From Bispira polyomma (Eukaryota): a stretch of DNA of 64,000 nt. The notes under the pieces are model-generated. The model had not been told where the DNA came from. It saw only the letters and a list, made by a program, of their open reading frames with translations, and ran no database searches. Both the position numbers and the translations under genes were made by a program. The stretch spans positions 5,146,001-5,210,000 of the forward strand of contig OZ287750.1 of NCBI GenBank assembly GCA_965649765.1, in the 5' to 3' direction. Below, piece after piece: positions 32,495 through 41,980 of this stretch (position 1 is its first letter; every line of letters begins with the position of its first letter).

Positions 32495-33453
32495 TGCCTC
32501 TCTCCCTCAATCCACAAAACGCAGATACTAACATAGACCTACTTGCAGACTGTCTGATGTCCAGGCGTGGATGAACTACTCCAAACTAAAGCTTAACCCT
32601 GACAAAACAGAATTCATCCTCATAGGAAACAAGAAAAACAGTGAACTCCTAAAATCATTGTTTCCCATCTCCCTGCTGGGAAAAGACATACTACCTTCCG
32701 AAAATGCTAAAAACCTGGGTGTCACTTTTGATTCAGCTTTTTCGTTCGATACTCATGTTGCCAACATCTGTCGCTCCTGCTATTACCACATACGCGACAT
32801 CACAAGAATCAGAAACCACTTGTCCATGGACACAGCGATAACTGTGGCAAATGCCCTTGTGAGTAGCCGCCTCGACTACTGCAATTCTCTCTTGTACGAA
32901 GCAAACAAGTCAAACATTAAAAAGCTGCAGTCCATCCAAAACTACCTATGTAGAGTCATTTTTCGCCTGGGTTGTCGCACAGACGTCAATCCTTACCTCA
33001 AAAAATTACACTGGTTGCCCATGAAATCTCGAATTTTGTTTAAGATTCACGTTCCCACTTTTAAGGCTGTAGTCACTCAACAGCCCCCCTACCTTGCCTC
33101 CCTTCTTTCCTTCAGTAACCGCAAGAGAGGCAACAGACTCTCTGTCACTTTGGTCAGACTAATCAGAAAGGCGGGTTTAAGAGCGTTCTCCACTGCAGCT
33201 CCACGGTTATGGAACAGTCTCCCAGTTGACCTCAGATCAGTTGACACACTTATCGGTTTTAGGAAAAGCTTAAAACCTATCTTTTTAATTTTGCATACCC
33301 ACCTTAGCTTTCCTCGTGCACGCTCCCACTTCCTTCCTTACGACTTTGCAATGTCCATGGACTTAATGATTGGACTAATGATTCTGCTGTTGCACTTTAG
33401 AAGATGACTAGCATCAATAAAGCGTGTTAAAAATCTATAATAATAATAATAAT
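32495..33453 (+). mobile_element. 5'-truncated L2-clade (CR1-group) LINE: RT C-terminal part, 3'UTR and (TAA)n tail
   Basis: WMNYSKLKLNPDKTEF, KNLGVTFDS, SRLDYCNSLL, LHWLP, AAPRLWNSLP. A frameshift hides the natural end LKTYLFNFAYPP* (TAG 33305-33307); another frameshift lies near 32555; tail (TAA)n ~33438-33453. Confidence 0.92.
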
Positions 33454-35265: not shown

Positions 35266-35519
35266 CTGACACCCCTCAGTTTGGACAGGTCGATTACATC
35301 CAACCAATCCATGAAGGCCTTACATATTATTTCCAACATGACGGCTGTGACTGATAATCGCCTGATAATATAAATCTGACACCCCTCACTTTGGATGGGT
35401 CGATCGCGTCTAACCAATTCATGAAGGCTTTACATATTTTTCTAAGATGGCGGTACATTTTTCAATGGTAGCAACCTTGTCAGAGTAAAAATAACATCAG
35501 GCTTCGCCTGATCAAAAAT
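35266..35519. mobile_element. Hairpin-terminated interspersed repeat with an internal ~110-bp tandem unit (probably Helentron-related)
   Basis: Two units beginning ctgacacccctca.tttgga; terminal hairpin ATCAGGC-TTC-GCCTGAT (35496-35512) followed by an A-run. Confidence 0.65.
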
Positions 35520-38224
35520 CTACATGCGAAACACCATTGTGCCTATATTTGAAAGGCAATACACCTTAGCTGGGCACCAAAAAAATGTCAACATTCCGGT
35601 CATTATGGAGGCATGACGTATTACCGAATGGGCAAGTCCTGTGACGGAAGGGAAGCCATTAATCACCGGATTGGAGCCTTTTAACTGCTCGCTGGTTAAT
35701 TTGTGTTGTCGTGTCTGCATAAAAGTCAACAACAAACACCCTACCCCCTCCACCCTCCCCACCTCAACATTCTTTTTCAAAAGAGACAGAAATCTCTTTC
35801 TACATACCTCCGTGTATAGGGGGATTTAGGGGATTATGGGAAGTAAAGTTCTGGAGTTAGACCACTATTACTTTTGTCATGTTATGTTACAGCATTTGCA
35901 CTATACTGAAGTCCGCTGAAAAACTGGCCCTACAAATCATATATCAAATTAAACATCAATCATAACCGGAATTTTTAGTATAAATGAAAACATGTCTGAA
36001 TTATTATTGGTTTTTTTGTTTGTTTTTTTTTTTTTTGTTTTTTTTTTTAATTTCCTGTCAAATCCAAGAAAGGCCCTTAAACAAATAGCTTCTGAATATT
36101 TATCTTAGTGAATTATCTTTTGCAATACATTTGAAATTATTCAGTAGTCATTTCCTTTCAATATCTGTGTATATATTCGCCAAAGTTATAATTGTTTACT
36201 ACTTTTATAAATTTTAGTTGCAACCTTATCCATTCCCTTTCGTTTCTACCTCAATACTGTGTAACCAACAAGCCTTTAATACTAAAGTCATTCCTTTTTT
36301 TCATAATACAAGGGACTCCATTTTAAATAGAGACAGGGTTTTTTCACACACTCTCTTCAAAGTAATCAAGATTATATGACATAAATAATCAACCAAATAT
36401 ACATGACATGGCAAGAATTAATATTGTGGTTTTAATTAGGAGAGTATATAAATTGATAATCTCTTCATAACCTAGGAGTGTGTAATTTTTTGTGATAATT
36501 AATAAAGCAGCATAAATAGCAAGTTATGTATTTAGGGTTTGGAAATAAAAGAAGAAAGGAAGCGAATGCAAAGCACCTGATTTAGACTGACATCTAAATG
36601 GCAAGCTTTGTTAATCTCCATTCATCCTGCAGATATTCCCAGCACTCATAATAAGGACTAAACTAGTCTTTATCCACAGAGAAGAACTACATTTCTAATA
36701 TAAACAGCCCCCACCCCCCCCACCCCCACCCACCCTCTTCTCCACCCCCCACCTCAATACAGAGCTATTTAATGGAACTTCACATTGCATGGATATCAAA
36801 ACAGAGTCTACTATACATCAGTTCTTTTCACATGTATGTATATTTTGTGAGACATCTCATTTGTCAAAAAAAGAAGGCTTTTCCTTTGATTTTCTTCAGG
36901 TGTACCATTTGTCGATTTAATATAAATAATGTATAATGCAAAACCTGAAAATAGATTGAAAATATGTCAATACAATTATGTAAATATCCCGGGATATCTT
37001 AAAATCATCTTTCTGGTAGAGAAATTTATATAATCAATTGGAATTTTAGCTGCAAGAAAATGTCACTGAATTACCATGTTTGAAAAATTCTCTGAAATAA
37101 ATTTTGACGAATTTCAATTTTCACTAGAAATGACTTTTCACTATCCAAGCTCATTGGTTAAAATGGCAAAAATTGATTGCTAGTGAAGGCTTCCACTAGT
37201 TCAGTAGCTTACAATAATTTCTTATAATAATTAACGCCCAGAAGCCGCATAGAAATGGCTTTACGGTCAAAGCTCCTTCAAAACCTAAAGAAAATAAACT
37301 CATTTAGGATACTAAAAACATACTGAAAACATATATATAGATATGCACACATTGCATACACCCTCAGTAATGTCTGATACATATACTACTTTGTAAATGA
37401 CATCAAAAGATAAAGCAATAAATAAGTTTATTATCATCCATAAGATTTGATACAGCTGAGGAGAATTAGGAAGTGGATTTTCAATCATATATGTGTCAAC
37501 ATATAAACACCTGCATATAATGCTGCTTTAATGTGCAAGAACTGCTATTATATTGGTATATCAGTGATTCTCTGGCCTTAAAGTCACGCTTTAAAGTCAT
37601 TTTGGCTTCAAATTACATGGCCATGTATATTACCTTTTTGATCATGCAGAACACGGAAGTCAGGTGACCATATAATTTTAGCCGTCAGGAAGTTAACATG
37701 AAAAACCAACAGTTTAAGTCTTCTAAAGCCTGAGTCTACGATAGTCTTAGTATCTGTTATTAGAAATCATACAAATAAGATTTAATCTGGAATATGTTCT
37801 GTCAATAAATGAAAGATCATTTTCTGTGTCACGTGTGAGGATCAAATACTAGTGCCCTTCTATGCATGTGCTCACATCAAGACTACTTATCCCTCAAGTG
37901 TAAACAGATATCACATTGTTCATATATTAATATATCTATGTAAATAACTCACTACAATAACAGTTACACATAATGCCACAAATTGGTAATTTATATATAC
38001 TTTTATGTTGTCAATTCTTTGATGTCTTCTGGGCTTTTTAAACGGAAATTCTACTTACACATACAAACTGTATGATAAAAACTGGAAGAAATGCAGGTAT
38101 TTTAAAGTGACTCCCTGCAAGACTGGGTGCTGGAGGAGGAAGGGGGGGGGGGGGGTCAATAAAACATACACACACACACACACACAGGCACTCTCGTTCC
38201 TAATGCAATTGCATGTTGTATATG

Positions 38225-40451
38225 TAGCAGTCAGAGGTTTAAGCCGTTGTATTACAATTGTAGAAATCACAAAACCAAGTCAATGAAGAATACCTTCAGT
38301 ATGCAAGCAAAAGTAGGATTTCATTTTTTTTTTCTGTGTTTAAAAAGAGAATTTTATATATTAATGGGAAAAAAACACTCCAGTAAGTTTTAAAGATACT
38401 GGAGCAAAGAGGAAAGGGGAATGGATTAGTATGCTTTGCATGGACTAAGAGTAATTAGTAATGGAAATCAAAATAAGACACAGTTCAAAAGTAACAAGTA
38501 TAAAATGCTTGATTCTTGCTGACAATGACTTGTGGGTACCGGTTTTAATGAGAAATAAATTGTGATTTTTTTATGTTGTAAAAGAAAATGGACGTAAAGT
38601 GTGCCGTTCATGTGCCTACTATTAAAGACTAGAGCTAAGGATGAGTTCCTTATAAACTGTATATACTATCTACAGTGTTAATACTAGGATTTGGGTTAGA
38701 AGGTTGTAGAGTTGGTGGGTTTCAGTAGGACGCCTGTAACTAGAAATGTATTCAAAACAGTTAAAGATGTTGTATTGTGGGGAATTTGTTGCAAAAACAA
38801 ATATCAGCTATTAAAGGAATCATTCTAGATCATCATTGGATATCTAGCTGGGTTTTTTTTTTTTTTTATTTAACATATTTATATATGTTACAAAAACTCA
38901 AGAGAAGAATGGATTTTTTTAACAAATCTCTGGGATAGTCTAAAAAGTGGGAGATTTTTCTTTTTCTTGTGTGGACCACAAGAACAGTGGGGTGAATGTA
39001 ATACATATAAAAGGAATAAGAAGACTATGTGCCTTTTTTACATTAGATCCCTACTGGATCTTTAAATACAACCAAAAATCATTGAGAGAGTCCACCGTTG
39101 ATGGGTTTTAGGTGTACGCCCAAGTGGATGAGAAGTATTCTGTACAAAGAGCCAGCAGGATAACATTAAGGGTCAGATATTGGTGGTGGTAGTGTGGTGT
39201 GTTCGGTGAGGGGCACTAAAACTCCTGGTCAGTACTGGCTATATAGAAGCTTCTACTTAGGTATTTATATCCCTATGTCACCATGGTTACAGGGGGATTA
39301 AGATAGATAAACAAACAACTGGATTCATCTATGCGGAATTTAGTGTTAAAATAAGGATAGTCACGTGATTATTTTTTATTTTCTTTGAAAAAAAATAAAG
39401 AAAGTTCAAACTAAGTTCACTTAAATTAAGACTTTAAGAAGGAATTTTAGAGTTAGATGGCAAAACTTTATGTTTTGAGTTTTTATATATACAAGGATAG
39501 CATCAATAATGGAGGAAATATTTTATTAAAGTAGACACAAGATAACATTAGTGAACAAGCAGGAATACACCACACTACTAAGAATGCTTATTAATGTTTC
39601 ATTAATAATATTTTGCCTGGATCTTTTACTATGGTTGTGTGTTGTTCTGGATATCTCTAAAGAGAGAATAAAAAAGGTGTAATGTAGACAATATAACTAT
39701 TCATATTTATCTGGATTTCAGCATATATACAGGTAGTTCACCATATACTTCTTGTGGCAGGTCATTTAGCTGTTGTTACTTTACCCTAACTGGATATAGA
39801 TATATTTATATGTACTGGGAGGGCTTGTCTTAATGATTTAGTATTTGGATAAATAAATACTCCATGCTTTATCAGTAGTAACTCCGGACTAGCCAGGTAG
39901 TAGAAAGACCTTAGGTGAGCTTATCTGAGCTGGAAACTAAAGCTGACTTCATGGGTATATATATATGGCAGTTCGTCATCACAAGTGAATACTTAATATG
40001 ACTAATTAATGAAAAAGTGAGTTTGTACAATATCATGGATAACTAACTGCCTATAAAGGTATATAGGACGTGTCAGGATAACAATGGTTTATCATTTTAG
40101 TGGTGCTTATTTCCTATGCTATTTTTCCAATGTGTGTAATGCACCATCTAGTGTAATTTGTTGTTTACTTTTGTTGCTGAAGACCAATTGTATATATGAT
40201 ATTTTTGATGGATTAGGAGGCCTTAGAAATGTAAGTTAGATGAAGCTTTTTTAAATCGTAATTTGCATTGAAACCAAAAAAATCATATGAACAAACAGAG
40301 ATGAAGATTAAAAGGAAAACGTTTTGATTACTTTCTATGCTGTATAATTTTCTCTTGATGCTTTATTTCATGACTGAAAGGGACAATATTTTGTACTATT
40401 GGATTTTAAACAATTGAAATACTTAACATATGAGAATATCTAAAAGCTACT
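38225..40451 (+). promoter_or_regulatory. Putative long 5' leader / 5'UTR of the NPR-like gene
   Basis: No recognisable TE; no polypyrimidine+AG acceptor directly before the ATG; plus-strand GGAT enrichment; preceded by a G-tract and (CA)n at ~38135-38186. The start coordinate is approximate. Confidence 0.4.
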
Positions 40452-41124
40452 ATGTCTATATTGCATGTTGCATTGATACTGCTTCATCTGATAGCATGCA
40501 CTAAAAACGAGGTACAGATAGCTACCATTGTACCTATCGACAGCTCGCGTATGTTCAACAAGATCCGCATTGCCCCCGCTATTGAGTATGCTTTTAGCAA
40601 GGTGAGGGACCTAGGAATTCTCTCCAAGGAGGTGACAGTGCGCTATGCAGATTCTGGATGCAACAGCGTGGCTGCACCTTTGGCCGCCTTCAACTTCTTC
40701 CGCCACAATCAGGCCCACGTCTTTCTCGGCCCGGTCTGTGACTATAGCTTGGCCCCAGTGGCCCGATATTCCCCATTCTGGGACATTCCTGTGATATCGC
40801 CCGGTGGTATGGCCCATGACTTTGGGGCAGACAAATTCACGGAGTTCCCCATGTTAACGAGGGTCGGATGGACCTTTGATTCCTTGGCACTCCAGATTGA
40901 CTCTGTCTTGGAGTCAAACAGTTGGGACCGCCTTAAGGTACTCTACACAGCCTTTGGCCACAATAAGGTGGCCGACAGGTTCTGTTACTTAGCGATGAGT
41001 GCACTGATACGCCACCTACGGGTGGATAACAGGAGAGAGTACCATGTGTATAACTTTGATGTGAGTAAAGGAGCAGAGGAATATGAGAAGATGTTGAATG
41101 AAGAAGTCGGCACTAAGTATGCAG
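40452..41124 (+). CDS. First coding exon of a natriuretic peptide receptor-like / receptor guanylate cyclase gene (signal peptide + ANF_receptor periplasmic-binding-protein-type extracellular domain)
   Basis: Translation has a hydrophobic signal peptide (MSILHVALILLHLIAC) and NPR-family motifs: IAPAIEYA, YADSGC, HVFLGPVCDYSLAPVARYSPFWDIPVISPGG, EFPMLTRVG, FCYLAM. GC and CpG content rise sharply over the exon. In-frame upstream TGA at 40431; canonical donor GCAG|GTAAGT after 41124 (phase 1). NPR-A/B-like versus NPR-C-like cannot be resolved from this exon. Confidence 0.92.
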
Positions 41125-41980
41125 GTAAGTGTTGCTGGCTTAGGCTTAGGTAATATTATATGTCTAAGCTAAGGTATTTGCAGACTAGTAGAGCAAGGGG
41201 ATATCACTAGAGATTTGAGTAAATATTAGTATCTGTGTCAAAACTTTTAAATATAATAAAAAGAGCATTGAAGTCAATATACATTCACACAATGCACAAT
41301 GCAAATCTAAGTTGTCGCTTGTTATGTGAAAGCAATGGTACATCAACTCTGGTATACCACTCACTAGTGTTTGCATCGTCATCAGTAAGAACCTTTTTTT
41401 TAATTTGTCCCCAAATAGTTTAGTGGTTAGAATTTGATTGTAGATATAGATTTGATCAATCTAGTCTGACTGCAGACTGATTGAAACAATACCTTAATTG
41501 CATCACGCATCACACATAGACACTTCATTTTATCTATTCCGGAGGCATATTCCCATCAAGTATAATTTTTTACACTTTTTAATCTTTATGATTTTTTGTA
41601 TTAAAAACCAGTGCAAAATACAATAGCTTAATTCAGTGCCCGAAACAATAGATCTGCTCAAATAGATCAATGGCATTTGAATGTACAAGGCCCCCTATTA
41701 TTTACCTTTTTAGTGTATTCCAATAATGTCAGTTTTTTTTTTTTTTTAAAAAGACCTTCTTTGTCATGGACATTTGACAGTCAGCCTCACACTTTGCAAT
41801 TATGTTGTGGTTTTTAATAGCAATTTAAGTACCATGCCACTGTGTAAGCAATTGCTTTCCTTTTCTTGCTTTGTACAAGTGACATACCCCTATACAACAG
41901 GTGTAGGCAGATCAATGTGTTAAATCTATCCTTCTTATATCTCCCTCTGTCCCTCTGTCATCTATTGCCACAGTATACCC

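Follow-up and report, generated by a model that had tools for sequence, protein, structure and literature searches.

A strand-biased GGAT array in the long leader of a receptor guanylyl cyclase exon and a genome-wide GGAT bias before start codons in Bispira polyomma

Why does one strand of a leader more than 2 kb long carry the word GGAT again and again? The question arises in a 64,000-nt stretch of the Bispira polyomma contig OZ287750.1 (positions 5,146,001 to 5,210,000; hereafter the window, whose numbering is used unless a contig or locus is named). An earlier note on this stretch had counted by eye about 23 GGAT, 14 TGGAT and about 2 ATCC upstream of a receptor gene, and had proposed that the asymmetry reflects an RNA-level code.

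A dispersed GGAT array in front of a cyclase exon

Direct counting on the + strand of 38300-40451 returned exactly these numbers and positions (GGAT 23, ATCC 2, TGGAT 14, ATCCA 0), together with the several GGAC (7) and the CTGGAT context (6) that had been described. The array and its surroundings comprise the following features:

38044..40451 (+): zone skewed to G over C and GGA over TCC, delimited by change points; predicted to be untranslated sequence of the long first exon V3
38050..38300 (+): possible start of transcription suggested by the sequence, with a G14 run (38142-38155) and an AC repeat (38164-38186)
38316..40404 (+): dispersed array of 23 GGAT by direct count, 19 of them GGATW, mean spacing 95 nt
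39228..40236 (+): donor-like sites from donor scoring (39228, 39915, 40017 and 40231 score 8.1-8.5)
40452..41124 (+): coding sequence of variable exon V3 (224 aa), with a signal peptide followed by the N-terminal stretch of an ANF_receptor domain (ORF, domain search, homologues)
41125..41130 (+): strong phase-1 donor CAG/GTAAGT, 13.0 bits by donor scoring

The note had expected 6-7 copies of each 4-mer, a figure that ignored the G skew and was too low for GGAT because the segment 38300-40451 holds 428 G and 260 C (skew +0.24). Sets of 1000 shuffles preserving mono-, di- or trinucleotide composition gave expectations of 9.6, 10.7 and 16.1 GGAT, and the observed 23 were reached by 0/1000, 0/1000 and 7/1000 shuffles, respectively. 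TGGAT showed the same pattern, its 14 copies standing against 3.9 expected under dinucleotide (0/1000) and 6.9 under trinucleotide shuffling (2/1000). ATCC is ordinary, with 2 copies against 3.2 expected and 371/1000 dinucleotide shuffles equally low. The dinucleotide-preserving shuffle, put forward earlier as the check that could dissolve the observation, therefore divides it: the ATCC deficit is a matter of local G-over-C skew, and the GGAT excess is not compositional.

GGAT sites in the array are spaced more evenly than by chance (CV 0.61 vs 0.93, p 0.012 in a single post hoc test). When 9,296 windows, each 2,152 nt long and drawn from the two strands of 1.36 Mb, were ranked by GGAT minus ATCC, only 7 stood above the leader's best windows, and all 7 belong to one 60-nt tandem array, so that the sliding-window count suggested earlier places the leader among the top windows. 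The description of the leader as dispersed and free of transposable elements also held. TRF found only (AC)n and a T run, the segment has one genome match and no multi-copy matches, an Rfam search of it gave no match, and contig depth is that of single-copy sequence apart from one bin (38713-39113, about 75 vs 12-15). A tandem repeat, a transposon remnant and a structured RNA family were rejected as explanations on these grounds (no periodicity, single copy, no Rfam match). Three DNA contig sets of one study contained no sequence variants in the leader. Upstream of it lie very high-copy short repeats (35266-35400 and 35960-36260; summed contig depth in the tens of thousands) and a 291-aa open frame at 32532-33407 (+) that by eye resembles the C-terminal part of a LINE reverse transcriptase and has no Pfam match.

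Measured from the ATG, the skewed zone begins at -2408 for GGA and at -2384 for G skew, and transcription would start near 38.05-38.3 kb; alternatively, this interval may hold a small upstream exon (donor 38097, 7.0 bits; acceptor 38348, 4.4 bits). The GGA bias ends at the donor at 41125, with GGA 11 vs TCC 17 in the next 1.5 kb. Within the leader, eight donor sites score at least 7, not significantly more than the 4.8 in shuffles (35/300). In line with the earlier statement that no good acceptor precedes the ATG, 38350-40451 contains none of at least 8 bits; its highest-scoring sites are 39047 (7.3), 40183 (6.9) and 40381 (5.2), and true acceptors have a leave-one-out median of 7.5 bits. A lack of good acceptors would be expected of downstream variable exons that each had a promoter of their own, but here it is not significant alone (47/300 shuffles). 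The internal donors and weak acceptors may allow small introns within 38300-40451, so that the very long 5'UTR of the note is at most putative over the full 2.1 kb. Upstream ATGs are not purged from the leader (53 vs 47.9 expected), and the uORF bypass suggested in the note finds no support.

The closest relatives of the 40452-41124 product are bryozoan and mollusc receptor guanylyl cyclases. Four divergent N-terminal exons (V1-V4) precede a single constant region within the surrounding 464 kb, in a gene at contig positions 5003658-5310083; they span about 240 kb, and each ends in a phase-1 donor compatible with the first constant exon. V1, V2 and V4 are found at loci L036, L047 and L052-L053. 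V2 is interrupted by an intron of about 670 nt (L047:1831-3192), and V1, V3 and V4 are unsplit. The constant exons share 66-68% identity with most gastropod and bivalve homologues tested, 59% with Lottia and 57% with insect ones, values that mark the animal as a lophotrochozoan. V4 groups with insect homologues, V1 and V2 group loosely with Mercenaria isoform X6, and one bryozoan record contains two such N-terminal segments. Two Mercenaria isoforms have an identical C-terminal 844 aa and different N-termini, a pair whose sequences support real use of such variable exons, which could diversify the ligand binding of the cyclase. Variable first exon arrays, in which several first coding exons are spliced to one constant region, are familiar from the clustered protocadherins and UGT1A. 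The cyclase resembles them in its alternative first coding exons and single constant region, and differs in having four old, divergent exons over about 240 kb, with per-exon promoters that are only putative. We found no report of a variable-first-exon guanylyl cyclase in the open-access literature searched. Elsewhere, several contigs (L002-L004, L006) carry guanylyl cyclase domains in long intronless frames of 449-725 aa.

Blastn among the four cyclase leaders detected no shared sequence; any bias common to them is therefore not inherited sequence. In a fixed 1.5 kb before the ATG, V1, V2 and V4 pooled gave GGAT 22 vs ATCC 7 and GGA 76 vs TCC 27; V2 on its own reaches significance (9 vs 0), which V1 (8 vs 5) and V4 (5 vs 2) do not. 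Taken together, the V2 internal intron and the introns that follow the four donors gave GGAT 29 vs ATCC 24 and GGA 67 vs TCC 81, and the 3' end of the cyclase showed no GGA excess. Where the GGA-biased zone of V4 begins, about 3.1 kb upstream of its ATG, the sequence switches in promoter-like fashion from C/CpG-rich to G/purine-rich (L052:6860-7200).

The word before start codons across the genome

Taken by itself, the segment 38300-40451 offers GGAT at a Poisson p of 8e-4 among 256 4-mers, a value that is weak after correction and leaves room for the reading that the array is simply the best of many words and windows. This reading is extremely improbable, as GGAT also comes first in an independent collection of 98 genes and holds up in 19 others. 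Genes were picked by family, weighted toward neural genes: the 98 comprise 60 GPCRs (of 153 matches), 20 protocadherins (of 23) and 18 BTB genes (20 taken of 35 matches, 2 without an in-frame ATG dropped). Within 750 nt upstream of the start codon in these unrelated genes, GGAT was the most strand-asymmetric 4-mer (347 vs 131 ATCC), GGATA the top-enriched 5-mer (2.5-fold) and TGGATA the top 6-mer (3.1-fold). Gene by gene, GGAT exceeded ATCC in 72, equalled it in 9 and fell below it in 17.

The flanks refine the word to D-GGAT-W, with GGATA (2.5) and GGATT (1.63) raised and GGATG (1.04) and GGATC (0.79) not. Also up were GGAATA (2.6-fold), GA-rich words (AGAG, GAGA) and, at about 1.5-fold each, TGGA and AGGA; the most depleted words were C-rich. 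Repeat masking left the bias in place (GGAT 373 vs ATCC 145 in 119 leaders). GATA-factor sites were rejected as its source (AGATA 0.97-fold), and AATAAA, considered under the idea of U1/polyA asymmetry, was not depleted on the sense strand of the leaders.

Three predictions, fixed in advance, were then put to a replication set of 40 TLR genes (of 104 matches) and 20 further GPCRs (1 dropped, no ATG). The 19 new GPCRs had 59 GGAT vs 26 ATCC in the leader, with GGAT higher in 14/19 and lower in 2/19. In the 40 TLR genes all three predictions failed: 84 vs 77 in the leader, a synonymous odds ratio of 1.10 (z 0.76) and 22 vs 18 after the stop codon. The bias is thus real and extends across the genome, with one of the two new gene sets reproducing it, and the leader 38300-40451 is an unusually long and dense case of it; what we infer is the mechanism. 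The proposed strand-specific RNA-level code gains support from this recurrence at most other genes tested and from its end at donors, and loses its supposed tie to the receptor gene in particular. Two further long sense-strand zones, GGAT-rich for reasons other than tandem repeats, are candidates for additional long leaders: one at L079, about 3.6-2.4 kb before a GPCR ATG (24 vs 5), and one at L150, 2.4 kb before a protocadherin ATG (18 vs 1). A metagenome scan for relatives with such leaders returned 262 pattern matches and 0 confirmed cases.

Might GGAT merely ride along with a G skew left by transcription-linked, strand-biased mutation near 5' ends and by CpG decay? Pooled leaders, at about 34% GC, have C at 0.88 of background and a CpG o/e of 0.32 vs 0.44, the low ATCC is wholly accounted for by skew, and animals are known to have GC skews at start sites, which likewise make the two strands differ in composition where genes begin (PMC3315797, in the portion available). 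We regard this mutational origin as improbable. GGAT, TGGAT and GGATA exceed di- and trinucleotide shuffles, which preserve the skew (GGATA 2.13-fold and 1.46-fold in the 98 genes, 2.48 and 1.73 in the 19 new GPCRs); the following base decides whether GGATN is raised; T is not raised as C-to-T change would have it; adjoining transcribed introns lack the bias; and invertebrate start sites are, according to the available portion of PMC3315797, typically C-biased, which is the opposite sign.

Exon, promoter and mobile element boundaries

No bias appeared in the introns flanking 68 internal exons, 17 of them from the cyclase and the other 51 retained from 61 loci, with GGAT vs ATCC at 121 vs 125 upstream and 130 vs 136 downstream. 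The bias does extend beyond leaders. The first 250 nt after GPCR stop codons had 58 vs 28, and 15 vs 5 in the replication GPCRs. In protocadherins (20 exons of about 2.7 kb), Asp codons that follow G favour GAT (odds ratio 1.54, z 3.3), a synonymous preference that runs along the whole exon (1.3-1.9 in four bins) and is confined to one of three reading frames; it is absent from the first 60 GPCRs (0.94) and 18 BTB genes (0.85). Of the options named in the earlier note, large-exon definition or first-exon marking is the best supported. A code common to all very long exons is not seen: the 20 protocadherin exons show the preference, and the 40 TLR genes, whose coding exons are as long as those of the protocadherins, lack the GGAT bias.

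Predicted acceptors add little resolution. An acceptor-anchored boundary test did not rise above permutations at four thresholds (53-202/300), with acceptor predictions near chance. In genes with a predicted near-ATG acceptor the bias was kept upstream of that acceptor (78 vs 27, acceptor predictions again being near chance level), and the GGAT rate associated with such an acceptor was 3.5 vs 4.5 per kb (p 0.06). Out-of-frame upstream ATGs, pooled over leaders, fall to 3.2 per kb in the last 48 nt from 6.2-6.8 further up; there is no depletion across the GGAT zone, the pooled drop being limited to the last 50-100 nt before the ATG.

The kept bias and the unpurged upstream ATGs are what one would expect if the word acted on nascent RNA or oriented DNA in the first kilobases of a transcription unit, exon or intron alike, protecting AT-rich transcripts from early termination or decay. 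A mobile element fits this promoter-proximal licence as well. In one young LTR family, all 8 copies found (82-100% identical) carry 8-11 GGAT and 1 ATCC in the element's own orientation, with the cluster's first site about 95-140 nt past the leading TATATAA in 7/8 copies and 84 nt past it in the eighth, and the element interior is unbiased (15 vs 12; 13 vs 12). Even the missing TLR signal could be accommodated: in 12/40 TLRs an acceptor lies no more than 60 nt from the ATG, and the promoters of these genes may be far away. We nevertheless rate the promoter-proximal licence as unlikely. The bias stops at donors whatever their distance: the V2 internal intron, only 250 nt behind the ATG, has GGA 8 vs TCC 12, against 34 vs 5 in the V2 leader. 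Sequence following stop codons carries it too, and in protocadherin exons it is spread evenly. The LTR copies, being one family, count as one observation; GGAT is in excess in their 260-620 part (8 vs 3.4, 4/1000 shuffles), a range chosen post hoc, and the whole LTR stands at 55/1000. The LTR cluster fits an exon mark and a promoter-proximal signal alike.

The family encodes its integrase before its reverse transcriptase, an order that we take to be Gmr1-like; two LTR pairs are 98.6% and 99.8% identical, and the primer-site word has 712 exact genome matches. Copies lie at contig 5298132-5304924 (L059-L060) and 5136147-5142866 (L050) and at L108 and L233, with solo LTRs at contig 4875104 and 5076428-5077182. 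GGAT clusters at contig 4875 kb, 5298 kb and 5304 kb, considered as further leaders, proved to be LTRs. Conservation of the GGAT letters among diverged copies (31/32 vs about 91%) was not significant.

A candidate reader and its known relatives

The reading we prefer, which falls just short of probable, is that the array offers sense-strand D-GGAT-W sites to SR-family proteins with a GGA core preference and thereby marks an AT-rich first exon of about 3 kb. The effect of SR proteins depends on position, in that they promote the use of a donor lying downstream of their sites and repress one lying upstream. SR proteins with a pseudo-RRM, of the SRSF1-like and SRSF4/5/6-like types, would occupy the predicted exon at intervals of about 100 nt, which would favour the 13-bit donor at 41125 over the internal donors of 8.1-8.5 bits and would help the AT-rich RNA to be kept and exported. 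The genome has two genes with the SWQDLKD pseudo-RRM motif (2/3 pattern matches), one product being nearly identical to SRSF1 RRM2 over 51 aa (E 3e-26); such genes are expected in any animal, which makes their presence a weak test. The bipartite SRSF1 signature, C at -4 or +6 of GGA, was not enriched in our sites (0.15 vs 0.17 and 0.15 vs 0.16), and the SR proteins are therefore only candidate readers. The pseudo-RRM binds GGA through its SWQDLKD helix (PMC7813835; PMC13036500, available parts), and in the published test RNAs the U flanks came from a design with GGA held constant (PMC7813835, available part).

The GGATW bias is akin to purine-rich exon-identity enhancers, a known kind of element. 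It shares with the GGA-core exonic enhancers of SRSF1/4/5/6/9 the GGA core, the sense strand, the purine-rich setting and a probable exon-side location, and the genome has SRSF1-like and SRSF4/5/6-like genes (PMC7813835; PMC13036500, available parts). It differs in reading GGAUW rather than GGAGA, in lacking C at -4/+6 and in residing mainly in non-coding leaders. Human LESE, dispersed short words proposed to define over-long internal exons (>1 kb), are alike in principle; as far as the available text of PMC3467050 goes, they are C-rich with a central CA, whereas here C is depleted, the word is G/A-rich, the exons are predicted first exons and long TLR exons go without it. ALREX and CAR-E likewise sit at the 5' ends of mRNAs that are intronless or have long exons, and have been proposed to permit their export and make them stable, but the vertebrate feature is high GC (PMC10732640, available part), and the leaders here are about one-third GC, CpG-poor and marked by a specific word. 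No report of a GGATA/GGAUW leader code was found in the open-access literature searched.

The word could instead be read in the cytoplasm or through modification of the mature long 5'UTR, by a translational regulator of neural mRNAs or as m6A; FMRP- and G3BP-type motifs stand behind this idea. The families with the bias (GPCR, protocadherin, BTB/channel and cyclase genes, not the immune TLRs), the similar rise of TGGA and AGGA, and 56 vs 31 GGACT in leaders would suit it. Yet we give it little credence. GGAC, central to the DRACH/m6A option raised in the note, is about as frequent as composition predicts (1.05-fold relative to dinucleotide-shuffled leaders; 7 vs 4.8 expected in 38300-40451, not significant, 195/1000 shuffles), the 53 upstream ATGs make plain scanning of the leader unlikely, such a code has no need of a cluster in an LTR or at synonymous sites, and the open-access literature yielded no link between G3BP and GGAU.

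More speculatively, and rather unlikely in our view, GGAUW could serve as a mark of a real transcript on long first exons in an AT-rich lophotrochozoan genome, taking the role that GC-rich 5' ends have in vertebrates. A single SR-type protein would read the mark and link it to donor choice and export, the four cyclase first exons would depend on it, and an active LTR retrotransposon would have copied the cluster behind its TATA box to pass the check. The word bears on how AT-rich first exons of several kilobases could be recognised where CpG islands are lacking, a question hardly touched so far in molluscs and their relatives. A defined word with a positive set (86/117 genes) and a negative set (TLRs, introns) can be tested in lophotrochozoan transcriptomes and would aid the prediction of 5' exons where a genome lacks annotation; should it be no more than a general SR enhancer bias, it would be a modest lineage-specific variant.

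Apart from these leaders, three near-identical myosin-head segments (L176, L177, L178) lie on different contigs with the same scores and frame lengths, and are possibly recent or element-borne duplicates.
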